Below are positions 3,776 through 23,152 of a DNA stretch of 32,000 nucleotides, in pieces. Position 1 is the stretch's first letter, and each line of letters begins with the position of its first letter. The stretch lies in NCBI GenBank assembly GCA_964543385.1, contig CAZIYE010000002.1, positions 30,001 to 62,000 of the forward strand, read 5' to 3'. Origin of the DNA: an uncultured Candidatus Saccharibacteria bacterium (GTDB lineage: Bacteria; Patescibacteriota; UBA1384; XYA2-FULL-43-10; 1-14-0-10-43-13). The notes beneath the pieces are model-generated. The model did no database searches, was not told the origin of the DNA, and saw only the letters and a program-made list of their open reading frames with translations. Position numbers and translations under genes: made by a program.

Positions 3776-4525
3776 ATGGAAGAAAAAGATTTACCAATCG
3801 AAAACAGGCTTAAGGACTTGCGAAAAGAAAAGCACCTTAGTCAAGAGGAATTAGCCGATGCAATCGGTATTTCTCGTCAGTCAATAATCTCACTTGAACA
3901 AGGCAGATCAATGCCTTCTGTTCCGTTGGCGATTTCCCTATGTCGGTATTTTGATGCCGCATTTGAAGAACTTTTCGACTTCGAGCGCGAAGTTGATAGA
4001 GAAATCAACAATGCAATTCACAATGGTAGTATTAATATAAAAGTAATTAATGATCCAGAAGTCGGATCGAGAAAGGACAATGCTATGGTAGAATTAGAGC
4101 CATGGAGACCTTTTAGAGAAACAGTATCCTTGAGAGACGCAATGGATCGGCTTTTAGAGGATAGTTTTATTACTCCTGCCAAAATGGGGGGTATGCCTCG
4201 AATTGATGTCAAAGATAAGAAAGACTCAATTGTAGTTAAAGCCGAGTTGCCAGGAATCAAGGAAGAGGACATCAATGTCGAAATCCTCGATAATGTCATG
4301 ACAATCTCAGGTGAGAAAAAAGAGGAAAAAGAAGAGAAAGAAGAGGACAAAGGCTATTATTACAAAGAAAGCCATACTGGAAAATTCTCTCGAAGTTTCA
4401 CCCTGCCATCTGAAGTAATGACCGAAAGGGCCGTTGCTGATATGAAAAATGGTATTCTCACAATCACTGTTCCAAAAATAGAGCCAAAGAAAGCTCAAAA
4501 GATAAGCATCGCCCCAAAGAGATAA
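3776..4525 (+). CDS. fusion protein: N-terminal XRE-family helix-turn-helix domain + C-terminal Hsp20/alpha-crystallin domain
   Basis: HTH: LRKEKHLSQEELADAIGISRQSIISLEQGRSMPSVPLAISLCRYF. ACD: PRIDVKDKKDSIVVKAELPGIKEEDINVEILDNVMTISGEKK...GKFSRSFTLPSEV...ADMKNGILTITVPK. One uninterrupted 249-aa ORF. Confidence 0.85.
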   Translation: MEEKDLPIENRLKDLRKEKHLSQEELADAIGISRQSIISLEQGRSMPSVPLAISLCRYFDAAFEELFDFEREVDREINNAIHNGSINIKVINDPEVGSRKDNAMVELEPWRPFRETVSLRDAMDRLLEDSFITPAKMGGMPRIDVKDKKDSIVVKAELPGIKEEDINVEILDNVMTISGEKKEEKEEKEEDKGYYYKESHTGKFSRSFTLPSEVMTERAVADMKNGILTITVPKIEPKKAQKISIAPKR

Positions 4526-4596: not shown

Positions 4597-5223
4597 TTAT
4601 GAAAGAAAATCTTTGCCACTCCAATCATCCATAAATTCTCTTAGATATTTTGCGATAATCTCATGTCTCCTATCTGCAATTATTCTAGCAGTTTTAGTAT
4701 TCATCATATCTCTTAAGAGCAAAAGTTTTTCATGAAAGTGGTTTATACTTGATCCATTTTCTTCCTGAGATTCTTCAGGGTCGAAAATTGGTCTATTTAT
4801 CTGTGCGCCGTAAGCAAATGTTCTGGCAATACCAATAGCACCTAGTGCATCGAGTCGATCTGCATCTTGGACGATTTGTGCCTCTAGTGTCTCTGGTTTT
4901 ATAGCATGCCTTTTATCCTTGAAGCTCACTGTTAAAATTACATCAATAATTCTATCAATCTTTTCTTGGCCAATCCCTAGAGTGTCCAACCATTTCCGCG
5001 TCTTGGATCTCTCTTTCTCATCTTCTACACTTGAGAACTTGTGATCATCAATATCATGAAGCAGAGCAGCCATCTCTACAATAAAAGCATCGGCTTTTTC
5101 CTTTTCGCAAATATATTGTGCAGCTTTCCAAACCCTCTGAGTATGCCACCAATCATGACCAGAAATGTCATCCTTGAAAAAATCTTTTACAAAATCAATT
5201 GTTTTCTCTATTTCTTTATTCAT
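4597..5223 (-). CDS. HD-domain metal-dependent phosphohydrolase (YpgQ-like)
   Basis: H...HD signature: WWHTQRV ... AALLHDIDDHK ... QDADRLDALGAIGIAR. 208 aa. Confidence 0.8.
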   Translation of the reverse strand: MNKEIEKTIDFVKDFFKDDISGHDWWHTQRVWKAAQYICEKEKADAFIVEMAALLHDIDDHKFSSVEDEKERSKTRKWLDTLGIGQEKIDRIIDVILTVSFKDKRHAIKPETLEAQIVQDADRLDALGAIGIARTFAYGAQINRPIFDPEESQEENGSSINHFHEKLLLLRDMMNTKTARIIADRRHEIIAKYLREFMDDWSGKDFLS

Positions 5224-5290: not shown

Positions 5291-5367
5291 TGGTGGGGCT
5301 GGGCGGACTCGAACCGCAGACCTCTTCAATGTCAATGAAGCGCTCTAACCAACTGAGCTACAGCCCC
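5291..5367 (-). tRNA. tRNA-Val (anticodon GAC), CCA encoded
   Basis: Minus strand reads GGGGCTGTAGCTCAGTTGGTTAGAGCGCTTCATTGACATTGAAGAGGTCTGCGGTTCGAGTCCGCCCAGCCCCACCA. Cloverleaf folded by hand. Anticodon stem CTTCA/TGAAG, loop TTGACAT. One mismatch in the T stem. Confidence 0.9.
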
Positions 5368-5571: not shown

Positions 5572-6012
5572 ATGAAGATCAAAGCAAAAAAATTAAATAA
5601 AGATGCCATTGTTCCTGTCCATTTATTACATGGTGACGCAGGGTTGGACTTACATTCCGTAATAGATGTAACTTTAAACTCAGGAGAGAGGCTTGCAGTG
5701 CCTACAGGGCTAGCATTTGAGCTGCCGGAGGGCTATGTATCATTGATCTGGGATAAGAGCGGATTAGCTCTGCGAAATGGTATAAAAACGATGGGCGGGG
5801 TGATAGAATATACTTATCGGGGTGAATATAAAATAATATTGCTAAACACGACCAATACGCCGTTTCATATTAAAAAGGGTGATAAAATCGCCCAGATGCT
5901 GGTGCAGCCAATAATGTCAGTTGATGTTGAAGAAGTCGAAGAATTAAGCGAGACAGAGCGCGGACTACATGGATTTGGCTCTGCTGATGAGAAGCTAAAG
6001 AATGGAAAATAA
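5572..6012 (+). CDS. dut: trimeric dUTPase-fold protein (dUTP pyrophosphatase)
   Basis: Motifs GDAGLDL, DKSGLA, GGVIEYTYRGE, GDKIAQML and the C-terminal ERGLHGFGSA. In motif III the usually invariant Asp is Glu (GVIE instead of GVID). Confidence 0.85.
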   Translation: MKIKAKKLNKDAIVPVHLLHGDAGLDLHSVIDVTLNSGERLAVPTGLAFELPEGYVSLIWDKSGLALRNGIKTMGGVIEYTYRGEYKIILLNTTNTPFHIKKGDKIAQMLVQPIMSVDVEEVEELSETERGLHGFGSADEKLKNGK

Positions 6013-6685
6013 AACCGGAAAATTCATTGTCATAGATGGTTCTGACGGGTCAGGTAAAAAGACCCAGTCTGATTTATTGATTGAAAGCTTGAAAAAAGCA
6101 GGGCATGAGACCGCTTATTATGATTTTCCTGATTATGATTCATTCTTTGGTAAGATGGTAGGCCGATACCTCAATGGAGAATTCGGCGAAGCAGATCAGG
6201 TCAGCCCCTATCTTGGCTCACTTTTATATGCAGGGGATCGCTGGCAAGCAAGTAAACAAATAGAAAAAGATCTTTCAGAAGGCAAAATTGTCATTTCAAA
6301 CCGATACACGCAGTCAAATATGGGCCATCAGGCTGCAAAAATAGACAATATTGATGAAAAAGAAAAGTATTTGAAATGGCTTGAAGAGCTAGAGTTTAAT
6401 ATTTATAAAATACCAAAACCAGACTTAGTTTTATTTTTACATGTCCCAGTAGAGATAAGTCAGAATCTGTTTGTCGGAAAGGGAAAGCGCAAATATACAA
6501 AGGCAGTCAAAGATATCCACGAAGGGAATGTCGATTTTATGAAGAGGTCGGTCAATGAATATCTCCGTTTAACAGAAAAATATCCAGAGTGGCGAAGAAT
6601 TGATTGTACAGAGGCAGAAACCCTACTGTCAAAGGAAGAGATTGCTGATAGAATTTATTCGATGATAACGAAAGAAGTTTTATGA
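6002..6685 (+). CDS. tmk: thymidylate kinase
   Basis: FIVIDGSDGSGKKTQ P-loop, a DRY-type motif present as NRY, and a lid region. Overlaps the dut end by 11 nt. TGA stop. Confidence 0.85.
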   Translation: MENKTGKFIVIDGSDGSGKKTQSDLLIESLKKAGHETAYYDFPDYDSFFGKMVGRYLNGEFGEADQVSPYLGSLLYAGDRWQASKQIEKDLSEGKIVISNRYTQSNMGHQAAKIDNIDEKEKYLKWLEELEFNIYKIPKPDLVLFLHVPVEISQNLFVGKGKRKYTKAVKDIHEGNVDFMKRSVNEYLRLTEKYPEWRRIDCTEAETLLSKEEIADRIYSMITKEVL

Positions 6686-6830: not shown

Positions 6831-8072
6831 ATGAATTTGAAAGATCAAGACAAAGAAATATTTGAAGTAATCAATTGTGAAAAAGAGCGCCAAGTCGAAG
6901 GTTTAGAGATGATTGCTTCTGAAAATTATGTCTCAGAAGCTGTCCTCGAAGCAACTGGTTCAATCCTCACTAACAAGTATGCTGAGGGCTATCCATACTC
7001 TAGATATTATGGTGGCTGTGAGTGCGTTGACAAAGGAGAGTCATTAGCAATTGAGCGATTAAAGAAATTATTTGGCTGCAAATTTGCCAATGTTCAGCCA
7101 CACTGTGGATCAAGTGCAAATATGGCAGCTTATGCTGCTATCCTTGCGCCAGGTGATAAATTGCTCGGACAAAGTTTAGATGCTGGAGGACATTTGACTC
7201 ATGGAGCCAAAGTTTCTTTTTCTGGGAAATGGTTTGAGTCATACAGCTATGGACTTGATTCAGAAACTGGACAGTTAAATTATGAAGAGATCAGAAAAAT
7301 TGCACTTGAAGTAAGGCCAAAAGTTATTATGTGTGGGTACTCAGCATATCCAAGAAAAATAGATTTCAAGAAATTTAGAGAGATTGCTGACGAAGTAGAC
7401 GCATATTTGATTGCAGATATAGCCCACATAGCCGGATTAGTTGCTACTGGCTATCATGATTCTCCTATTGGTATCGCTGATATAGTTACATCAACAACTC
7501 ATAAAACTCTAAGAGGTCCACGTTCCGGCATCATTATGACAAATAATGAAGAATTGGCAAAGAAGATTGACAAAGCGGTTTTCCCGATGCTTCAGGGTGG
7601 TCCACTCGAGCATGTTATTGCCGCTAAGGCAGTTGCATTTGGCGAAGCGCTAAAACCTGAATTTAAGATATATATAAGCAATGTTTTAGATAATATGCAG
7701 ACTTTTGCCAAGACTTTAATGTCTTTTGATTTTGACTTGGTCACTGGCGGGACAGAGAATCATCTAATATTAGTCGATCTTAGAAGCAAGAGCATAACCG
7801 GTAAGGAATTCGAGTATGCTCTACACGAAGCAGGGATTACAGTAAATAAAAATGCTATTCCCAATGACCCAAATCCGCCAAAAGTTACTTCCGGCATCAG
7901 AGTTGGGACAGCCGCATTAACAACCCGCGGAATGGGTGTTAAAGAAATGCAGCGGATTGCTGAAATGTTTAATATCGTTGCTGAAAATATCAGCGATGAG
8001 CAAAAACTTGCCGAAATCAAACAAGAGATTAAAGAAATGACCGAAAATTTCCCAGTACCGGGCATTAAATAA
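6831..8072 (+). CDS. glyA: serine hydroxymethyltransferase
   Basis: 413 aa with GLEMIASENYVS, YAEGYPYSRYYGGC and TSTTHKTLRGPRSG (PLP-lysine motif). SD aaaggag lies 6 nt upstream. Confidence 0.96.
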   Translation: MNLKDQDKEIFEVINCEKERQVEGLEMIASENYVSEAVLEATGSILTNKYAEGYPYSRYYGGCECVDKGESLAIERLKKLFGCKFANVQPHCGSSANMAAYAAILAPGDKLLGQSLDAGGHLTHGAKVSFSGKWFESYSYGLDSETGQLNYEEIRKIALEVRPKVIMCGYSAYPRKIDFKKFREIADEVDAYLIADIAHIAGLVATGYHDSPIGIADIVTSTTHKTLRGPRSGIIMTNNEELAKKIDKAVFPMLQGGPLEHVIAAKAVAFGEALKPEFKIYISNVLDNMQTFAKTLMSFDFDLVTGGTENHLILVDLRSKSITGKEFEYALHEAGITVNKNAIPNDPNPPKVTSGIRVGTAALTTRGMGVKEMQRIAEMFNIVAENISDEQKLAEIKQEIKEMTENFPVPGIK

Positions 8073-8081
8073 GGATTAGCG

Positions 8082-8390
8082 ATGGATTTTTCAGAATTAC
8101 AAGAAAAAATTATTGCCAATGCAGAGCGATATTCAAAAAAACATGATATTTTAATTAATGATGATTATGCAATTCATAAATTATATGAAGAAGTTGGCGA
8201 GTTTTCTCAAGCCTGGCTTATTCACAATCGCCAATGCAGAGAATCGAAATATGTTGAAAAAGAGATGTCCAAGAAGATGATCTCGCACGAATTGGCTGAT
8301 ATAATCGGAATTGCGGTAGTGATAGCAAATTTGCAGAAAATAAACTTAGAAAAAGCAATTGACCAAAAATGGATTAATAGAGAAAAATAA
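8082..8390 (+). CDS. MazG-like all-alpha nucleoside triphosphate pyrophosphohydrolase (single domain, DCTPP1/YpjD-like)
   Basis: 102 aa with LYEEVGEF (EExxE-type metal motif) and ISHELADIIGIAVVIA (second acidic helix). Confidence 0.7.
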   Translation: MDFSELQEKIIANAERYSKKHDILINDDYAIHKLYEEVGEFSQAWLIHNRQCRESKYVEKEMSKKMISHELADIIGIAVVIANLQKINLEKAIDQKWINREK

Positions 8391-8391
8391 T

Positions 8392-8946
8392 ATGATATTA
8401 GGAGTAACTGGAACAATTGGCGCTGGCAAAGATTTGATTGCAAGATATCTGGAAAGTAAAGATTTTCAGCATATTTCTACTGCCGATATCCTTAGAGAAG
8501 AAGTCTCTCAAAAAGGCTTATCCTTAGAACGTGAATCATTACGCACTTTTTCAAACGATTTAAAGAAAGAAAAAGGTGGCGATTATCTAGCAAGGGAGGC
8601 TGTTGCTAGAATGAAAAGTGATAATATTATAATATCCGCAATAAGAGCAGTAGAAGAAGTCGATTACCTAAAAAAACTAGATAATTTTTATCTTATTTTT
8701 ATTGATGCTCCTGTTGAATTACGATATGAAAGAATCAGAAAAAGATCACGGATAGGCGAGAAGGAAATAGCCTTTGAAGAGTTTAAAAGAAAAGAAGACT
8801 TAGAAATGTTTGGCCAAAGCTCACAAAGACTAGATTATTGCAGGGAGAAGGCCGATTTCATAATTAGTAATACTAGCTCCATAGATCAATTAAATATAGA
8901 AATTGACAATCTGCTAATCAAGATTAGGGAAAGTGGAAATAAATGA
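8392..8946 (+). CDS. P-loop nucleoside/nucleotide kinase (CoaE / dNMP-kinase-like), substrate unknown
   Basis: ILGVTGTIGAGKD P-loop at the N-terminus and a lid-like RYERIRKRSR. I prefer ATG 8392, directly after the mazG-like stop, over the track's TTG at 8359. Confidence 0.65.
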   Translation: MILGVTGTIGAGKDLIARYLESKDFQHISTADILREEVSQKGLSLERESLRTFSNDLKKEKGGDYLAREAVARMKSDNIIISAIRAVEEVDYLKKLDNFYLIFIDAPVELRYERIRKRSRIGEKEIAFEEFKRKEDLEMFGQSSQRLDYCREKADFIISNTSSIDQLNIEIDNLLIKIRESGNK

Positions 8947-9773
8947 CACAGTTTGATCATGTATACCAAGATGCAATAGCCAGAGTTCTGAATGAAGGAG
9001 TGGAAGATTTTAATGTTCGTACTGGCATGAAAGTAAAGGCAGTGCCGGGACTTACTTTTCAGTGTGATTTTGGTTTTCCGATATTAACATTACGCAAAAT
9101 CCCCATAAAACTATTTATAGCTGAGATGGTTTGGTTTCTTTCTGGTAGCAAGGATCCAGATGATTTCTTAAGTAAATATACGAAAATATGGGATGATTTC
9201 CGAGAAGAAGATGGTACTATTGCTGCGGCTTATGGTCATCGCTGGAGACACCATTTCGGGCGTGATCAGATAAAAGACTTAATTTCCCTTCTCCAGAATG
9301 AGCCATCTTCGCGCCACGGTGTGGTCGTAACATGGGATCCGGCAGACGACGGTCTTGGCAGCGGCACGAAAAAGAAAAACGTACCTTGTCCATACACATT
9401 TACCGTAAATATTATCGGTGATAGACTTCATTTGCATTCAATAGTTCGCTCAAATGATATGATGCTTGGCTGCCCTCACGATACAGCCGGCTTCTCATTG
9501 CTCCAATATTTATTAGCAGCAAAACTTGGCGTAAGACCAGGCGTTTATACACATTCAGTAAGCAATGCTCATATATATGAAAATCATTATGACCAGGCAT
9601 GGGAGATCGTGAATAGAGAAAATTCTCACCCCCCAATCGTTTTTGAGCCCAGGCCAGATTATCTAGATAGAGCAATGGCAGGGGACGAAAGCGTAATAAA
9701 TGAAATTTACGAAACATTAACAGAACAATACAAACCTAGATCAGCAGTTAAAAAAATGAAGATAGCATTATGA
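8943..9773 (+). CDS. thymidylate synthase (ThyA) superfamily enzyme with Asp at the Asn177-equivalent position; predicted pyrimidine C5 (hydroxy)methylase acting on a cytosine nucleotide
   Basis: ThyA-family motifs: VRTG, FIAEMVWFLSG, AYGHRWR, DQIKDLISLLQNEPSSRH, catalytic NVPCPY, VRSNDMMLGCPHDTAGF, SNAHIYENH. The start overlaps the kinase stop by 4 nt. Confidence 0.85.
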   Translation: MTQFDHVYQDAIARVLNEGVEDFNVRTGMKVKAVPGLTFQCDFGFPILTLRKIPIKLFIAEMVWFLSGSKDPDDFLSKYTKIWDDFREEDGTIAAAYGHRWRHHFGRDQIKDLISLLQNEPSSRHGVVVTWDPADDGLGSGTKKKNVPCPYTFTVNIIGDRLHLHSIVRSNDMMLGCPHDTAGFSLLQYLLAAKLGVRPGVYTHSVSNAHIYENHYDQAWEIVNRENSHPPIVFEPRPDYLDRAMAGDESVINEIYETLTEQYKPRSAVKKMKIAL

Positions 9774-10297
9774 AAACAATAATAATCATGGCTCAGTCAC
9801 TTGATGGTGTGATAGCTTATGACGCTGACCACGCCGCGAACTGGACATCGAAAGAAGATAAGCAGTTTTTTATATCTGAAACCAAGAAAGCCGGAGTAAT
9901 AATTTTTGGCAGAAATACCTATAAAACTTTTGGCGACAAACCTTTGCAAGGCAGACTAAACCTTGTGATGACCCTGGATGAAAGTGAAAAGCAATTTGAA
10001 AAGCCAGGTCTTGTTGAATATGCGGTTAAAAAAGAGCCATCGGAAATATTAAAAATGTTAAAAAAGAGAGGCTTTAAAAAAGTTTTTGTCGGCGGAGGAA
10101 GTATGATTAATTCACTTTTCCTTGATAAGGGGTTAATCGATGAACTTTGGATAACCATTGAGCCAAAAATTTTTGGAAAAGGATTAAAAATACTCACTGA
10201 TCAAAAAAGAGATATTAATCTTGTTTTGAAAACAGTTAAAAAAGCAAACCAATCAGTTTTATTAAAGTACGGAGTGAATTATGGGAATTCTAACTAG
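9770..10297 (+). CDS. dihydrofolate-reductase-fold reductase (RibD C-terminal domain family)
   Basis: IIIMAQSLDGVIA..., IIFGRNTYKTFG, VFVGGGSMINSLFLDKGLIDELWITIEPKIFGKG. ATGA overlap with the thyA-like stop. Confidence 0.7.
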   Translation: MKTIIIMAQSLDGVIAYDADHAANWTSKEDKQFFISETKKAGVIIFGRNTYKTFGDKPLQGRLNLVMTLDESEKQFEKPGLVEYAVKKEPSEILKMLKKRGFKKVFVGGGSMINSLFLDKGLIDELWITIEPKIFGKGLKILTDQKRDINLVLKTVKKANQSVLLKYGVNYGNSN

Positions 10298-10997
10298 AAA
10301 AGAAATTTTGACTGCTATTGCTGATGGGGAGCTTAGTTTTGAGCCAGGCTTAGACCAATTTCAGCTACAACCAGCTGCAATCGACGTTCGGGTTGGTATG
10401 AACTTTTTCATACCAAAAATTTGGTCATTTGGAGAAGAGGGAAGAACGGGCTTGAATACTGATCATCTTGATAACGAAAAAAAGAATGAGTTTTTAGATA
10501 GTCTACATTTAAAACATGGGCAGACCTTTGAATTGCTCCCAGGGGAATTTATCTTAATTTCGACTCTAGAAAAGATTTCTATGAAGTCAGGCAGACTTGT
10601 CTCTATCCTTTATCCTAGGAGTTCCACGACCAGAAGAGGTATATCTATTGAATCTGGCGTTATAGATCCTCATTACGAAGGCTCTCTTATGATCCCTGTT
10701 TTTAATATGACTAGAACGCAAAAAATCAAGATATATCCCGGTGAAAGAATTGCCCAGCTTGTTTTTTCTACTACCGAGAGTGTTCTTTCTAAGGAAGAGT
10801 CCTTGAATCATGGACTTGCAAAACCTAAATATCAGGGAGTCCAAGGCTATCAGTTGGATTATAAGTTCGATCCGCATGATGAAATCAATTTAGTCAAAAA
10901 TGGCCAATTGGATAAATTAAAAAAGAATCACCTAATTTCATTAGACGAAAGGGTTGAAAGTGGCGACGAAAAAAATCAACTACCCTTATCTGCCTAA
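10281..10997 (+). CDS. dCTP deaminase/dUTPase-superfamily protein (Dcd-like N-terminus, dUTPase-like catalytic motifs, no deaminase Glu)
   Basis: ILTRKEILTAIADGELSFEP...AAIDVRVG (Dcd-like), YPRSSTTRRGISI, GVIDPHYEGSLMIPVFN, PGERIAQLVF. SD ggagtg lies upstream of the ATG. About 45 aa of C-terminal extension. Confidence 0.75.
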   Translation: MGILTRKEILTAIADGELSFEPGLDQFQLQPAAIDVRVGMNFFIPKIWSFGEEGRTGLNTDHLDNEKKNEFLDSLHLKHGQTFELLPGEFILISTLEKISMKSGRLVSILYPRSSTTRRGISIESGVIDPHYEGSLMIPVFNMTRTQKIKIYPGERIAQLVFSTTESVLSKEESLNHGLAKPKYQGVQGYQLDYKFDPHDEINLVKNGQLDKLKKNHLISLDERVESGDEKNQLPLSA

Positions 10998-11841
10998 AGG
11001 TAGAGAAATCAAGTTTGTCGGTTCTGAAAATGAATATATATTAGCGGCTAAAGAGGCTGCTATGAAGGCTGGCTGCAGAAAACAGCCAACAGGAGCAGTC
11101 TTGGTCAAAGACGGCAAAATAATAATGACGGCTACCAATGCAAGTACTACGGTCAGCGTCTGCCCCAGAGTATTAAAAGGAAGCAAGACTGGAACCGACT
11201 ATCATTTTTGCAAGGAAGTTTGTAATCAAGACGGGCACTCTGAATATAGCGCAGTACAAAAATGTCTAGAGAAGGGGATAGACATAAAAGACGCTGATAT
11301 TTATCTCTGGGGACATTGGTGGTGCTGCAAACCATGTTGGGACAAGATGATCGAAGGAGAAATCAAAAATGTTTATCTGGAGAAAAATGCAGATGAAAAA
11401 TTCATGTTTTCCGCAACTATCGGCAAAATCTATATTTCAGGTGCTCTCACCATACAGCCAAAGGGTAAAAATTTAAGAAAATCATATGAAAATTTAGCAG
11501 CAGTTTGCTCAAACTTTTGTAGCAATGTTTATGTGCCACATCTTAATAGCACGGATCCGATCAAGGATCCCAATGAAGTGCCGTCTATTGTTTGGAAAAC
11601 TGATCACAGGGAAGTAGCTTCTTCTGATATCGTAGTCGCATATGTTGGCGCACCATCTCTAGGGACTGGCGCAGAGCTTGAGATCGCCAGAATGGCGGCT
11701 TCAGATATAGTAGTTTGGTGGTATAAAGGTGAAATGGTTAGTAGAATGTGTCTTGGAAATCCAAATGTTAAATATAAGTTGGAAGTTATCAATGACCAAG
11801 ATTTAGCCCATCAGCTTAAGTTAGTCCTAAGGAATTATTAG
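10954..11841 (+). CDS. fusion: dCMP/cytidine-deaminase-fold zinc domain + DNPH1/Rcl (nucleoside 2-deoxyribosyltransferase-fold) domain
   Basis: Deaminase signature: DGHSEYSAV (HxE) and CCKPCWDKM (PCxxC). C-terminal half: IYISGAL ... SSDIVVAYVGAPSLGTGAELEIARMA. Start uncertain: TTG 10954 or GTG 10960; the latter has aaggg 6 nt upstream. Confidence 0.75.
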   Translation: MKVATKKINYPYLPKGREIKFVGSENEYILAAKEAAMKAGCRKQPTGAVLVKDGKIIMTATNASTTVSVCPRVLKGSKTGTDYHFCKEVCNQDGHSEYSAVQKCLEKGIDIKDADIYLWGHWWCCKPCWDKMIEGEIKNVYLEKNADEKFMFSATIGKIYISGALTIQPKGKNLRKSYENLAAVCSNFCSNVYVPHLNSTDPIKDPNEVPSIVWKTDHREVASSDIVVAYVGAPSLGTGAELEIARMAASDIVVWWYKGEMVSRMCLGNPNVKYKLEVINDQDLAHQLKLVLRNY

Positions 11842-12079: not shown

Positions 12080-13807
12080 ATGCAAGAGAAAATCGACATC
12101 GAAAAAGTTAGACACTCGCTTAGCCATGTTTTGGCTGCAGCTGTTTTGGATATGTTTCCAGAGGCAAAGCTCGGTATCGGACCGGCTATTGAGAATGGTT
12201 TTTATTATGATTTTGATTTGCCAAGAACTTTAATCCCAGAAGACCTGCCAATCCTTGAGGAGAAAATGAAAAAAATGATTGCTGGTGATTTTGCCCTAGA
12301 ATGCAGGAAGGAGCCGAAAGACAAGGCTGAAAATTTTTTCAAAAAAATAGGTCAACAGTATAAATCTGAATTAGCAAGTGAAATTGATGATGAGAGTGTC
12401 TCAATATATGACATAAAAGACGAGAAAAGCGGTCAATATGTATTTGCTGATCTTTGCGCTGGGCCACACATCGAGTCTGCGAAAAATTTAAGAAACATTG
12501 GCTGGAAATTAGATAAAATCGCTGGTGCTTATTGGCGTGGTAATGAAAAGAATAAGATGTTGCAGCGTATTTATGGGTTGGCTTTCGAAACTAGAGACGA
12601 ACTAAAAGAATATGAGCTGATGATGATCGAAGCAGCTAAGCACGATCATAAAAAATTAGGCAAAGAGCTGGATTTGTTCTCTTTTCATCCCGAAGCTCCG
12701 GGTATGCCCTTCTGGCACGAAAAAGGGATGGCTATTTGGACTCAGCTTGAAAAATTTGGCAAATCAATTCGTAAGAAATATGATTATATTGAGATCAAGA
12801 CTCCACTTCTAGCCAAAAATAGCTTATGGATAACATCTGGCCACTGGGACCATTATCGAGATGGCATGTTCACTTTTAATATCGGCGAAGATATTTATGG
12901 ACTGAAACCCATGGATTGTCCATTTAATGTAAAGATTTATCAGACGAAACCAAGATCATATAAGGATCTGCCAATTCGTTACACAGAAATAGGTCATGTT
13001 CACCGCAAGGAGCAATCGGGTGAATTAAATGGTCTTTTGAGAGTACAAGAAATTACCCAAGATGATTCTCATATATTTATGAGAGAAGACCAAATCGGCG
13101 AAGAAATTGGTAAATTATTAAAAATGGTCAAAGAATTTTATAAAAAACTCACATTAGAACCAGAGTTTTTCCTTTCGACTAGACCGGAAAAATATATAGG
13201 TGAGATTAAGACTTGGGACAAGGCTGAAGATGACTTAAGAAAGGTACTTGAGTCTGAAAAAATCAGCTATGAGCTGAAGGAAAAGGATGGCGCATTTTAT
13301 GGCCCAAAAATCGATGTTAATATCAAAGATGTGTTTGGTAGATCTTGGCAGTTAGCCACTATCCAGTTAGATTTTCAATTACCCGGACGCTTTGATTGTG
13401 AATATATAGACGAAAATGGTGAAAAAAAGACTCCAGTCTTAATACATGCTGCAGTATTTGGTGCGTTTGAACGCATGATTGGCATCTTAATTGAGCATTT
13501 TGGTGGTGCTTTTCCAACATGGTTGGCGCCAATTCAAGCTCAAATACTGCCGATTGCTGATAGACATCTCGAATATGCAAAGAAAATCAGAGAAGCATTG
13601 CAAGACCAAGGAATCAGAGTCTCTATTGATGATAGAACAGAATCCATCGGCAAGAAAATCCGTGAAGCTGAAATGCAAAAAATCCCTTACATGCTAATAG
13701 TCGGTGACAAAGAAATCGAAGCCAAGAAAATAGCAGTTCGAAAATATGGAGAAGGGGATAGGGGGCAGATAGATGCTGAGGAATTAATCAAAGAGATAAA
13801 TGGCTAA
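12080..13807 (+). CDS. thrS: threonyl-tRNA synthetase (no N-terminal TGS domain)
   Basis: Starts MQEKIDIEKVRHSLSHVLA (editing-domain HxxxH) after SD aaagaagga. Class II motifs: FHPEAPGMPFWHEKG, RVQEITQDDSHIF, GAFYGPKID. Anticodon-binding C-terminus. I prefer ATG 12080 over the track start 12056. Confidence 0.95.
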   Translation: MQEKIDIEKVRHSLSHVLAAAVLDMFPEAKLGIGPAIENGFYYDFDLPRTLIPEDLPILEEKMKKMIAGDFALECRKEPKDKAENFFKKIGQQYKSELASEIDDESVSIYDIKDEKSGQYVFADLCAGPHIESAKNLRNIGWKLDKIAGAYWRGNEKNKMLQRIYGLAFETRDELKEYELMMIEAAKHDHKKLGKELDLFSFHPEAPGMPFWHEKGMAIWTQLEKFGKSIRKKYDYIEIKTPLLAKNSLWITSGHWDHYRDGMFTFNIGEDIYGLKPMDCPFNVKIYQTKPRSYKDLPIRYTEIGHVHRKEQSGELNGLLRVQEITQDDSHIFMREDQIGEEIGKLLKMVKEFYKKLTLEPEFFLSTRPEKYIGEIKTWDKAEDDLRKVLESEKISYELKEKDGAFYGPKIDVNIKDVFGRSWQLATIQLDFQLPGRFDCEYIDENGEKKTPVLIHAAVFGAFERMIGILIEHFGGAFPTWLAPIQAQILPIADRHLEYAKKIREALQDQGIRVSIDDRTESIGKKIREAEMQKIPYMLIVGDKEIEAKKIAVRKYGEGDRGQIDAEELIKEING

Positions 13808-14225
13808 TCCAAAACCTGGAAAAGATTATATCGGTGTTGGTGGAGGGGTATTAATTATCAACGATAAAAAAGAAACTCTTTTGTTGAAACGAGGCAAGAA
13901 GGCAAAAAACGATATTGGAATCTGGTGCAAGCCTGGCGGCGCAGTGGAGTATGGGGAGACCGTTGAGGCAATGATGAAAAGAGAGGTCAAAGAAGAATTA
14001 AATATAGATATAGAAATCATTAAATGGCTCAAACATACAGATCATTTTGTTGATGGCGATCACTGGGTCGCATTTAATTGCGTTGCCAAAATTATAAATG
14101 GTAATCCGGAAAATATGGAACCTCTTAAACATTCCGAAATAAAGTGGTTTAGTCTTGATAAAATGCCGAAAAATCTAGCTGCACCTACTAAAGATGCAGC
14201 AGAAGAATATCTAAAAAGTCTATGA
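13800..14225 (+). CDS. NUDIX hydrolase
   Basis: Nudix box GGAVEYGETVEAMMKREVKEELNI. Overlaps the thrS stop by 8 nt. Confidence 0.85.
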   Translation: MANPKPGKDYIGVGGGVLIINDKKETLLLKRGKKAKNDIGIWCKPGGAVEYGETVEAMMKREVKEELNIDIEIIKWLKHTDHFVDGDHWVAFNCVAKIINGNPENMEPLKHSEIKWFSLDKMPKNLAAPTKDAAEEYLKSL

Positions 14226-21829: not shown

Positions 21830-23152
21830 TTAGCTAAATGTCAATTCTGTACGATAGCCCCTTTTAAAATCTTCGTAGGTCATTTCATTCTTGCCTTCAG
21901 GCTTGACTCGATCTAGCGCATAGGTCAAATCCTTCTCAAAATGACCGGCAATCAATTGCACTTTTTTGTCTTTTACAACTGCGAATGCCTTTGGCCAGTC
22001 GCTAAATGCTCTAATTTTTCTGTCTACTATCTCTTTGGGTGTATCTGCGTCGACAAATCCATCTTCTTTTTTGAAAAGTCGATTGTATGTTGCCTTGCTA
22101 TCATCTTGGGGTGTTGGTTCTAGATCCTTGGTCAGATAATAAGGGATAGAATTAACCAGAAGCGAAGCACCAATTTCTGCTAAGTAAGGTTTTAAAATAG
22201 TTGTTGTCTCTGTGCCACGAAGCTGGACACTAGCCTGTGAAATGATGTCACCAGCATCCATTTTTTCGCCAGTCAATATTAGAGATACTCCGGTAACCTT
22301 ATCACCGTCTAAAATTGTTTGTTGAATCGGTGATGGTCCTCTGTGCTGAGGCAAAAGAGACGGATGGATATTTATTATGCCAAATTCTGGAATATCAATT
22401 ATATCTTTACTAATGATCTGTCCAAAATCGGCCATTATCCCAAGCTTCGGTTTCAGTGCTTTAATTTTTTCAACAATGTCAGGAGATTTAATATTGTCGG
22501 TTTTGATTATTGGTAGATTATATCTGTTTGCAATCTCCTCAATTGGATTTTTCTTTTTATTATGTTTTCTGGAAACAGCCTGGGAATTGCCGGTTATGAC
22601 TGCCCTGATCTTATATTGGGGATCAATAGCTAAAATTTCTAGAGCATCGATGCCGAGAGTTCCAGTACCTATAAATATAACGTCTATCTCTCGGATATGG
22701 TCAATTAGTAGAGTTGAATTTAAATGGTCAATTTCATGTTGAAGTACTCTCGAGAATAGGCCAGTTGCCTCGATAGTCAGATTATTTCCTAATCGATCTT
22801 TGCCAGTCACAGTAACGTCGCTAGGTCTCTTAACAATTATCTCTAAGCCAGGAAAAGACAGACACCCCTCCACCATATTTCTAGATGATTTCGATCTTTT
22901 AGTTATTTTTGGGTTGCAAATAACTGTCAGGGGAAAGGATTTAAATCTTGAGTCCTCTTCGGCCTTGTATTCGCAAACTATTACTTTTTTTGAACTTTTG
23001 ACTTGAGGAGCGGCAAGGCCAACGCCATTAGCAGCTCTCATGGTATCAATCATATCATCTATGAAGGCTTGAAATTCCATACCAAAATCGCTGACCTCTT
23101 CGGTCTTGGCTCTAAGAATTGGATTGCTAGTTTTTATTATTTCTAATTTCAT
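21830..23152 (-). CDS. fused peptide deformylase + methionyl-tRNA formyltransferase (single 440-aa ORF)
   Basis: Def motifs: GVGLAAPQV, EGCLSFPG, QHEIDHL (aa 1-~155). About 12 aa later the Fmt part begins: VIFIGTGTLG, INIHPSLLPQHRGPSPIQ, KMDAGDII, and a C-terminal tRNA-binding domain. No stop or frameshift between the two parts. Confidence 0.9.
   Translation of the reverse strand: MKLEIIKTSNPILRAKTEEVSDFGMEFQAFIDDMIDTMRAANGVGLAAPQVKSSKKVIVCEYKAEEDSRFKSFPLTVICNPKITKRSKSSRNMVEGCLSFPGLEIIVKRPSDVTVTGKDRLGNNLTIEATGLFSRVLQHEIDHLNSTLLIDHIREIDVIFIGTGTLGIDALEILAIDPQYKIRAVITGNSQAVSRKHNKKKNPIEEIANRYNLPIIKTDNIKSPDIVEKIKALKPKLGIMADFGQIISKDIIDIPEFGIINIHPSLLPQHRGPSPIQQTILDGDKVTGVSLILTGEKMDAGDIISQASVQLRGTETTTILKPYLAEIGASLLVNSIPYYLTKDLEPTPQDDSKATYNRLFKKEDGFVDADTPKEIVDRKIRAFSDWPKAFAVVKDKKVQLIAGHFEKDLTYALDRVKPEGKNEMTYEDFKRGYRTELTFS

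Follow-up and report, generated by a model that had tools for sequence, protein, structure and literature searches.

Two cellular solutions to thymidylate supply are recognised, ThyA and ThyX, and both methylate dUMP. For phages, thymidylate synthase (TS) homologs with aspartate in place of the base-reading asparagine, the reading of these proteins as dCMP-acting enzymes, and the derivation of thymidylate from deaminated 5-methyl-dC nucleotides are already published (PMC8670742, PMC13326640, bioRxiv 10.1101/2024.12.05.627091), and the enzyme class is therefore known. Here we examine a cellular member, the 276-aa product of the open reading frame (ORF) at 8943-9773 (+) in a 32,000-nucleotide stretch of contig CAZIYE010000002.1 from an uncultured Candidatus Saccharibacteria bacterium; we call this whole stretch the window. 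With moderate confidence, we read the protein as a dCMP C5-methyltransferase of the phage Xp12 type and not as a dUMP-dependent TS, the 5-methyl-dC nucleotide being then deaminated to thymidylate. It has the active-site signature of the Xp12 dCMP-methylating enzymes, so the cells probably methylate cytosine first and deaminate it afterwards. What is new here is that the "thyA" conserved on the chromosomes of a large bacterial radiation is of the Xp12 type, that a DCD-like (dCTP deaminase-like) protein without its catalytic Glu accompanies it, and that a deaminase is fused to a DNPH1-like domain. In the literature searched, with incomplete coverage, the Asp in ThyA of the Candidate Phyla Radiation (CPR, or Patescibacteria) is unremarked, and CPR thyA is treated as an ordinary thymidylate synthase gene; the same literature yielded no report of an inverted thymidylate route in cells, and nothing relevant on CPR together with dCMP methylase, thyX or a methylome.

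The rules that relate residues to chemistry in this fold come from experiment: N177D gives dCMP as the substrate, an acidic residue at position 143 gives hydroxymethylation (T4-like enzymes and MilA), and D169N gives 5-hydroxylation (PMC13326640; E. coli ThyA numbering, used below unless window numbering is indicated). Positions 177 and 147 are the top two discriminators between cytosine-modified and unmodified viral contigs (PMC8670742). As cited in PMC8670742 and PMC13326640, replacing Asn by Asp at this position makes the Lactobacillus casei and E. coli enzymes accept dCMP in place of dUMP (Liu & Santi 1992; Hardy & Nalivaika 1992); ThyA engineered to N177D/N229D is a dCMP methylase. The Xp12 enzyme and five of seven Asp-type metagenomic enzymes make 5-methyldeoxycytidine (5mdC) in E. 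coli, and the deaminases encoded beside Asp-type TS genes have been proposed to yield dT nucleotides; one of them, mSCD-B5 from a metagenomic phage contig, converts 5mdCTP to dTTP in vitro and acts on 5mdCTP only (bioRxiv 10.1101/2024.12.05.627091). According to the same study, dCMP-deaminase genes in viromes lie at most 3 kb from a TS gene in 70% of cases on predicted modified-cytosine contigs versus 6.1% on predicted canonical-DNA contigs, and 85.1% of the linked TS genes on modified-cytosine contigs are predicted to be dCMP-acting (bioRxiv 10.1101/2024.12.05.627091).

Aspartate 180 and the changes linked to it

The window protein has a full-length TS fold. It matched PF00303 with 182.3 bits against a cut-off of 24.3 (E 1.3e-53), and its AlphaFold2 (AF2) model (pLDDT 86, pTM 0.88) superposed over the full length on solved TS structures with TM scores of 0.75-0.80 (E ~1e-20), both of which agree with the TS homology that an earlier reading of the DNA by a model without database searches (the sequence-only reading) had assigned. 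Residues R21, E58, W80, Y94, R126, C146, R166, S167, D169, H207 and Y209 are all conserved. The active-site codons discussed here, with residues in window numbering, are as follows.

9387..9392, + strand: Cys149 (catalytic, codon 9387-9389) followed by Pro150, corresponding to E. coli C146-H147; the KNVPCP motif is common to Xp12-type enzymes
9447-9449, + strand: codon of Arg169, the E. coli R166 equivalent
9480..9482, + strand: codon of Asp180, the base-reading residue (E. coli ThyA Asn177)

The sequence-only reading had rested its case on three strings aligned by eye, NVPCPY, VRSND and LGCPHDTAGF, and on the placement of an Asp opposite Asn177. All three strings were found in the protein, the Cys-to-Arg spacing is 20 residues as from C146 to R166 in E. 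coli, and a gapless HMMER alignment to solved TS and a MAFFT alignment with E. coli ThyA agreed on the Asp. In the HMMER alignments to solved thymidylate synthases, "mmlgcphdtagf" (RSNDMMLGCPHDTAGF) falls on "iflgvpfniasy" (RSADIFLGVPFNIASY) without gaps, and therefore Asp180 falls on E. coli Asn177. A survey of orthologs for Asn versus Asp, which that reading had also proposed, took the best 120 homologs, of which 111 matched the motif pattern and all 111 carried Asp; the other nine did not match the pattern and were not examined further. Asp180 is also an invariant column in the 29-sequence family alignment A1. Judged from these alignments, it is neither a sequencing accident nor a chance event, and it is one of a set of linked changes.

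To describe that set, we aligned the 12 residues that lie within 6 Å of the nucleotide C5 (list from PMC13326640) in the window protein, E. coli ThyA, T4 gp42 and the TS homologs of phages Xp12, PaMx74 and ZQG1. Four of these shells are given below.

Position: W80 Y94 A142 L143 C146 H147 Q165 S167 C168 D169 G173 N177
Window: W Y K N C P V S N D G D
Xp12: W Y K N C P L S S D G D
E. coli ThyA: W Y A L C H Q S C D G N
T4 gp42: W Y S D C T M S N D G D

The combination of Asn143, Pro147, Asp169 and Asp177 is identical in the window protein, Xp12, PaMx74 and ZQG1. These four proteins also have in common an insertion relative to E. coli ThyA, "A(D/E)DGLG..KNVPCP", and a five-residue deletion, "WRxH-----FGRDQ", and Phe replaces Trp83 in the window protein and the Xp12-type enzymes. 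At the positions that mark canonical ThyA, the window protein has Asp180 for Asn177, Pro150 for His147 and Asn146 for Leu143. By the published rules, Asn143, Asp169 and Asp177 fit the pattern of a methylase and not that of a hydroxymethylase or a 5-hydroxylase: the hydroxymethylase signature is an Asp or Glu at 143, which admits water, where the window has Asn, and the 5-hydroxy-dCMP synthase signature is Asn169, where the window has Asp172 (window numbering) in an invariant column.

The C-terminal lid of ThyA closes the ternary complex for hydride transfer. In the window protein the tail YKPRSAVKKMKIAL ("Y.P....K.KIAL") aligned with the E. coli ThyA lid YDPHPGIKAPVAI; the family conserves this tail and T4 gp42 lacks it, the lack of this lid being a mark of hydroxymethylases. 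We take the retained lid as evidence that would favour reductive methylation. The hydroxymethylase and 5-hydroxylase readings were rejected on positions 143 and 169 and on this tail.

Comparison with whole sequences pointed in the same direction. The window protein is 35% identical to the Xp12 enzyme, 30% to E. coli ThyA and 23% to T4 gp42. Among phage proteins it matches the ZQG1 enzyme best, with 35% identity across 97% of the window protein; the ZQG1 enzyme in turn shares 69% identity with that of Xp12 and 74% with that of PaMx74. An exhaustive search of 1.8 billion cluster representatives was made, and among the 150 nearest representatives listed, 85 carried the N143/P147/D169/D177 combination and 21 carried Asn177. 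In a neighbour-joining (NJ) tree, the window protein and Xp12 stood together among 115 Asp-type sequences, free of Asn-type ones, in 99 of 100 bootstraps. The contigs of the closest non-CPR representatives are phage-like. When CPR genomes with a canonical ThyA in this module were sought among the nearest Asn-type representatives, the two inspected also proved to be on phage-like contigs. IMG/VR contained only three close relatives (47-60% identity), L096, L097 and L098 (UViG_3300031521_000456, 3300025858_000007 and 3300031250_000005), all with Asp and with a dUTPase nearby; these may come from phages that infect CPR bacteria, or they may be CPR sequences wrongly classed as viral. The claim in the sequence-only reading that the substrate is a cytosine nucleotide gains computational support from Pro147, Asn143, the two indels found in Xp12 and PaMx74, and the 99/100 NJ bootstraps with Xp12.

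The nine-gene run and its conservation in Patescibacteria

The window has a G+C content of about 37% and is an ordinary bacterial chromosome of Patescibacteria type, with housekeeping genes for tmRNA, tRNA-Val, ThrRS, L25, UvrB, TrmD, a Def-Fmt fusion, PriA, Der, LepB, Lgt and LspA. The TS homolog lies inside a run of nine same-strand genes with several overlaps of stop and start codons. To follow this module elsewhere, we scanned one genome per species and obtained 80 loci with orthologs at 55-95% identity, on which all neighbour counts out of 80 are based. The genes of the run are listed in order.

5572..6012, + strand: canonical trimeric dUTPase (Dut), first gene of the run; PF00692 102 bits; in the module in 21/80 loci
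6002..6685, + strand: dTMP kinase (Tmk); PF02223, and TIGR00041 at 88.5 bits against a cut-off of 83.25; in the module in 27/80 loci
6831..8072, + strand: serine hydroxymethyltransferase (SHMT); PF00464 526 bits; in the module in 17/80 loci
8082..8390, + strand: small MazG-like NTP pyrophosphohydrolase; PF12643, PF03819 and PF01503 all weak; phrog_715; in 2/80 loci
8359..8946, + strand: P-loop nucleoside-monophosphate kinase; AAA_17/18 and CoaE; phrog_139 E 3.7e-15; PDB 3lw7/3h0k, AdkA-like
8943..9773, + strand: TS-fold enzyme with Asp180, predicted dCMP C5-methyltransferase (5-methyl-dCMP synthase), from the PF00303 match, alignments, AF2 model and Xp12 grouping
9770..10297, + strand: dihydrofolate reductase (DHFR)-fold reductase (DHFR_1/RibD_C), from profile matches; next to the TS gene in 51/80 CPR loci
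10281..10997, + strand: DCD-fold protein annotated as dCTP deaminase; TIGR02274 101.5 bits; Pro replaces the catalytic Glu; predicted nucleotide pyrophosphatase
10954..11841, + strand: zinc deaminase of the dCMP-deaminase superfamily with a C-terminal DNPH1-like domain; PF00383 42 bits, MafB19-deam, Nuc_deoxyrib_tr E 4.5e-4

SHMT regenerates 5,10-methylene-tetrahydrofolate. The stop of the kinase gene and the start of the TS gene overlap in an ATGA at 8943-8946, and so do the TS stop and the DHFR start at 9770-9773; both overlaps, the second with the gene that the sequence-only reading called translationally coupled, are real. For the P-loop kinase, the best phage family is "deoxynucleoside monophosphate kinase"; by strict phmmer it is in the module in 22/80 loci, and L004 and L007 also have AAA_17/18 genes. 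No similarity was found between this adjacent kinase and the 190-aa N-terminal extension of P0122. That the protein is the only thymidylate-synthase homolog, as the earlier reading had it, held for the window, to which we limit the claim: neither ThyX nor another ThyA was present among all window ORFs of at least 200 aa scanned. Likewise, across ~0.66 M residues of translated ORFs from the window and the 80 loci, the ThyX motif RHR-x7-S/T gave chance matches only, the sole long ORF matching it being a DUF975 protein.

All named lineages among the 80 loci are Patescibacteria (Falkow-, Kuenen-, Uhr-, Magasanik-, Kerfeld-, Moran-, Nomura-, Harrison- and Portnoybacteria, Paceibacteria and Minisyncoccia), the remaining records having generic or doubtful bin labels. 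Beside the TS gene we found the deaminase ortholog in 72/80 loci, DHFR in 51/80 and the DCD-like protein in 35/80, within neighbourhoods that vary, S2/EF-Ts/GAPDH and SecE/NusG/L11/L1 being examples. The G+C content of the loci ranges from 29.5% to ~64%, and neither a drift towards AT nor a depletion of CpG is common to them. In the phages Xp12, PaMx74 and ZQG1, the gene order is pyrophosphohydrolase, TS homolog, dCMP deaminase and DHFR. In more distant Asp-type representatives, natural fusions join the TS domain to a dCMP deaminase (P0144) and to PRA-PH/MazG (P0193), and in P0143 an Asp-type TS domain is fused to an HNH endonuclease, the locus entry for such fusions being L090 8001-9302.

The deaminase (10954-11841) consists of a zinc deaminase at residues ~26-150 and a DNPH1/nucleoside-deoxyribosyltransferase-like domain at ~153-295. 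Its zinc motifs "GHSEYSA" and "CCKPC" (H(A/S)E and PCxxC) aligned to Streptococcus mutans dCMP deaminase 2hvv, and its membership is at superfamily level only, the dCMP-deaminase equivalog TIGR02571 giving 33 bits against a cut-off of 219. We predict that it deaminates 5-methyl-dC nucleotides. The C-terminal domain is related to DNPH1/Rcl and nucleoside 2-deoxyribosyltransferases, keeps the "PSLGxGxE" motif and is fused in ~14/80 loci; free-standing versions with the full "IYFxGSIRGGRxD" signature were found at L022 9259-9756, L051 4743-5159 (-), L046 565-984 (-) and L052 4298-4711 (-). This domain might sanitise dNMPs or bind nucleotides in a regulatory role.

For the DCD-like protein, alignment placed GVIDPHYEGSLMIPVFN on GFIDPGFSGHITLELSN of the Mycobacterium tuberculosis DCD-DUT (2qxx), with Pro at the catalytic Glu129 (E. 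coli Glu138). The same Pro was found in 34 of 41 aligned sequences, the window protein and CPR orthologs included, most of the exceptions being ordinary dUTPases caught by the same search; the DCD-like gene beside the deaminase-TS fusion (L090 9335-9973, -) also has Pro, and orthologs occur within L010-L089, for example at L018 8542-9192 and L024 8846-9580. Because the catalytic Glu is lost, this protein cannot be a deaminase. It keeps the pyrophosphatase-site residues of the dUTPase fold (Ser, Arg and Asp), and it is probably an unrecognised DCD-fold family of nucleotide pyrophosphatases; the dCTP-deaminase annotations of Glu-less DCD-fold proteins are likely wrong. Since many loci, including the window, also have a standard dUTPase, its specificity should differ, and most simply it would convert dCTP (or 5-methyl-dCTP) to the monophosphate.

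The DHFR product supports the view, put forward in the sequence-only reading, that methyl transfer is reductive and produces dihydrofolate. Its coupling to the TS homolog in the window, its presence in 51/80 loci and in the phages, the lid, and the absence of hydroxymethylase and hydroxylase signatures all favour this prediction. CPR folA genes, which may or may not belong to the family of the window DHFR, complement E. coli delta-folA (PMC11974145).

In the proposed mechanism, whose steps are inferred from residues shared with characterised enzymes, dCMP would be drawn from dCTP or dCDP pools, possibly through the Glu-less DCD-like or the MazG-like protein; the DCD-like protein would probably supply dCMP from dCTP or remove 5-methyl-dCTP. 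Cys149 would attack C6 of dCMP, and Asp180 would read and protonate the cytosine N3/N4. The one-carbon unit of 5,10-methylene-tetrahydrofolate would then pass to C5 and be reduced by the folate hydride under the closed C-terminal lid, giving 5-methyl-dCMP and dihydrofolate, and the folate would be recycled by the translationally coupled DHFR and SHMT. The linked deaminase would convert the 5-methyl-dC nucleotide to the matching thymidine nucleotide: at the monophosphate level this would give dTMP for the dTMP kinase of the operon, while alternatively the dNMP-kinase-like enzyme might act first, with deamination of the triphosphate giving dTTP directly, as by mSCD-B5. The net result would be a housekeeping route to thymidylate in inverted order, without dUMP as an intermediate, in a module conserved across many Patescibacteria. 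The final deamination, also anticipated by the sequence-only reading, which was unaware of the precedent in phages, is made plausible by the adjacency of the deaminase in 72/80 loci, the P0144 fusion, and the phage pathway, which has been proposed and partly shown.

Several further features of the window and of related contigs were noted. An HD-domain protein (4597-5223, -) and a NUDIX hydrolase (13800-14225, +) flank the nucleotide operon; both families include nucleotide-sanitising enzymes, and the pair might serve the same nucleotide economy. A tRNA-Val(GAC) gene (5291-5367, -) lies just upstream of the operon. Elsewhere in the window are the tmRNA gene (2381-2768, -; Rfam 106.7 bits) with the predicted tag peptide AKSLVERVKTAFAGFAFAPVAA, a 249-aa ORF (3776-4525, +) that joins an N-terminal Cro/C1-type helix-turn-helix to a C-terminal Hsp20/alpha-crystallin domain, and the Def-Fmt fusion, a 440-aa ORF (21830-23152, -) with Pep_deformylase and Formyl_trans_N/C (methionyl-tRNA formyltransferase) domains. 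Downstream of the module on a Falkowbacteria contig (L007 12881-14125), a 414-aa Tmk-TK fusion combines thymidylate-kinase and thymidine-kinase domains.

Weighing the alternatives

A number of points count against dCMP methylation followed by deamination. Arg127, a phosphate ligand contributed by the partner subunit, is the only ligand changed: the window protein has His there, and CPR members have either His or Gln. At position 176, Phe gives way to His in the window protein and to His or Thr in CPR members. The operon's dUTPase, which makes dUMP, and its dCMP-deaminase-family enzyme fit the classical dUMP route equally well. The Xp12-type dCMP methylase role given to the CPR members is predicted from sequence, and the NJ tree is a simple distance tree on 50%-identity representatives. 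No specific BLAST similarity was found between the CPR deaminase and those of Xp12, PaMx74 and ZQG1, and its preference for 5-methyl-dC is therefore pure inference; in the BLAST comparison of the CPR and phage modules, the DHFRs alone showed a weak N-terminal match. Finally, if ThyX or an Asn-type ThyA were present in the same genomes, a role in thymidylate supply would be unneeded.

The first competing explanation is that the protein is a working dUMP-dependent TS despite its Asp, with the deaminase and dUTPase making dUMP and compensating changes letting a protonated Asp read uracil. In its favour, the neighbouring genes are precisely those of classical thymidylate synthesis (Dut, dCMP deaminase, DHFR, SHMT and Tmk), the protein keeps all the remaining ligands for catalysis and for deoxyribose and phosphate in the set from R21 to Y209, the TIGR03284 "thymidylate synthase" model was passed (121.6 bits against a cut-off of 108.35), and all databases name the protein thymidylate synthase. 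Yet the equivalog models PRK01827.1-1, -2, -3 and -5 for ThyA all failed, at 112-152 bits against 325-405 and thus short by more than 170 bits. The switch to dCMP in Asn-to-Asp mutants of the L. casei and E. coli enzymes (Liu & Santi 1992; Hardy & Nalivaika 1992, as cited above) also stands against dUMP use, as do the further derived characters common to proven dCMP methylases, the failure to group with Asn-type sequences, and the virome linkage of TS and deaminase genes, which marks predicted modified-cytosine contigs (70% vs 6.1%) with mostly dCMP-type TS. We regard this explanation as unlikely.

A second explanation, which can coexist with the inverted thymidylate route, accepts the dCMP methylase and gives its product another fate: 5-methyl-dCMP would mainly be phosphorylated by the adjacent dNMP-kinase-like enzyme and incorporated into DNA, with DCD-like and MazG-like pyrophosphatases depleting dCTP, so that 5-methylcytosine (5mC) or a derivative would replace C partly or wholly, as in Xp12. 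Xp12-type phages with the same module do replace C fully by 5mC (PMC8670742; bioRxiv 10.1101/2024.12.05.627091), and candidate counterparts of all phage replacement functions are in the module (an NTP pyrophosphatase, a dNMP-kinase-like gene and an Asp-type TS). Nevertheless, the cell would still need a source of thymidylate, a need that the 72/80 deaminase linkage fits; the kinase and the DCD-like gene are in only 22/80 and 35/80 loci, and the G+C span without common AT drift or CpG depletion is weak evidence in the same direction. No report of unusual CPR DNA was found in the literature searched. This fate seems doubtful as the main use of the product. To our knowledge, no cellular organism shows wholesale base replacement. 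We consider it improbable that Patescibacteria with this module also incorporate 5-methyl-dCMP to the point that chromosomal 5mC largely or wholly replaces C, which would be the first cellular case of phage-style base replacement; within such a scheme, the dNMP-kinase-like gene and the Glu-less DCD-like protein would correspond to the phage dNMP kinase and dCTPase.

Other C5 chemistry on dCMP, by a hydroxymethylase (as T4 gp42 or MilA) or a 5-hydroxylase (as RB69 gp48) serving a modified base or a small molecule, is quite unlikely. Asp177 is common to all these enzyme classes, and the fusion of the deaminase to a DNPH1/NDT-like domain recalls the pair of MilA (hydroxymethylase) and MilB (nucleoside 2-deoxyribosyltransferase (NDT)-family N-glycosidase). 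Against this, the window protein shares Asn143 with Xp12, where T4 gp42 and MilA have Asp/Glu, and it has Asp at position 169, where 5-hydroxy-dCMP synthases have Asn. The TS lid is present, identity to T4 gp42 is only 23%, and one would expect a conserved DHFR partner only for an enzyme that produces dihydrofolate.

A phage-derived island or prophage remnant, confined to this genome and without a housekeeping role, is brought to mind by the phage origin of the closest experimentally characterised relatives and by the phage-like contigs of the closest non-CPR representatives, and was rejected as highly improbable from the flanking genes and the distribution: the window is a piece of ordinary chromosome with housekeeping genes, at least 80 species-level genomes from many lineages of Patescibacteria carry orthologs (55-95% identity) in differing housekeeping neighbourhoods, and IMG/VR contained only the three close relatives.

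If methylation of dCMP followed by deamination is the true route, a large part of the Patescibacteria would use a third arrangement for thymidylate, hitherto described for Xp12-type phages only. Thousands of "thymidylate synthase" annotations would then need to be changed, along with neighbouring "dCTP deaminase" annotations, and metabolic reconstructions of these minimal cells would need revision. It would also hint that CPR bacteria and phage DNA-modification enzymes are connected, whichever way transfer went, point to cells as a source of 5mC-selective deaminases, a class that interests methylation sequencing, and raise the question of bulk 5mC in any cellular genome.

Comparison with known systems

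Compared with ThyA (EC 2.1.1.45; E. coli and L. casei), the window protein has the same fold (TM 0.75-0.80), the catalytic Cys, the phosphate and deoxyribose ligands, E58, W80, Y94, D169 and the lid, and a similar coupling to DHFR and SHMT. It differs in having Asp for Asn177, Pro for His147 and Asn for Leu143, in the two indels, and in never grouping with Asn-type sequences. T4 gp42 likewise reads the base with Asp and has the same catalytic Cys, and dCMP is the substrate to be expected for the window protein as well; by contrast, gp42 has Asp143, Thr147 and Val83, lacks the whole C-terminal segment, is only 23% identical, and releases tetrahydrofolate, so that it has no need of DHFR.

Among deaminases, the mSCD-type enzymes (bioRxiv 10.1101/2024.12.05.627091) are like that of the window in belonging to the dCMP-deaminase superfamily, in matching MafB19-deam, and in being encoded beside an Asp-type TS gene, and the role proposed for them, as for the window enzyme, is the formation of dT nucleotides from 5-methyl-dC nucleotides. 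Unlike the phage deaminases, the CPR deaminase is without the GYNG-type motif, and the window version adds the C-terminal DNPH1-like domain.

The Xp12-type systems are also among the closest known. The Xp12 enzyme is ~35% identical to the CPR protein, whose gene is chromosomal among housekeeping genes and conserved across a bacterial radiation; Xp12 has Arg127 and Tyr176 where CPR members have His/Gln127 and His/Thr176, and its C-terminal tail reads "EVIE" where the CPR tail is the ThyA-like "KIAL". CPR loci have a Glu-less DCD-fold protein where the phage has a large MazG/HAD hydrolase, and the CPR operon adds Tmk, SHMT and Dut. Xp12 DNA is modified; modification of CPR DNA is hypothetical. 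On the other side, the TS homologs of Xp12, PaMx74, ZQG1 and other Mesyanzhinovviridae/Pamexvirus phages match the window protein in fold, in K/R142, N143, C146, P147, S167, D169, G173 and D177, in both indels relative to E. coli ThyA and in F83. Their genes likewise have an NTP pyrophosphatase, a dCMP-deaminase-family gene and DHFR as neighbours, and these phages are proposed to obtain thymidine nucleotides by deaminating 5-methyl-dC nucleotides, the same order of steps that we propose for the bacterium of the window.

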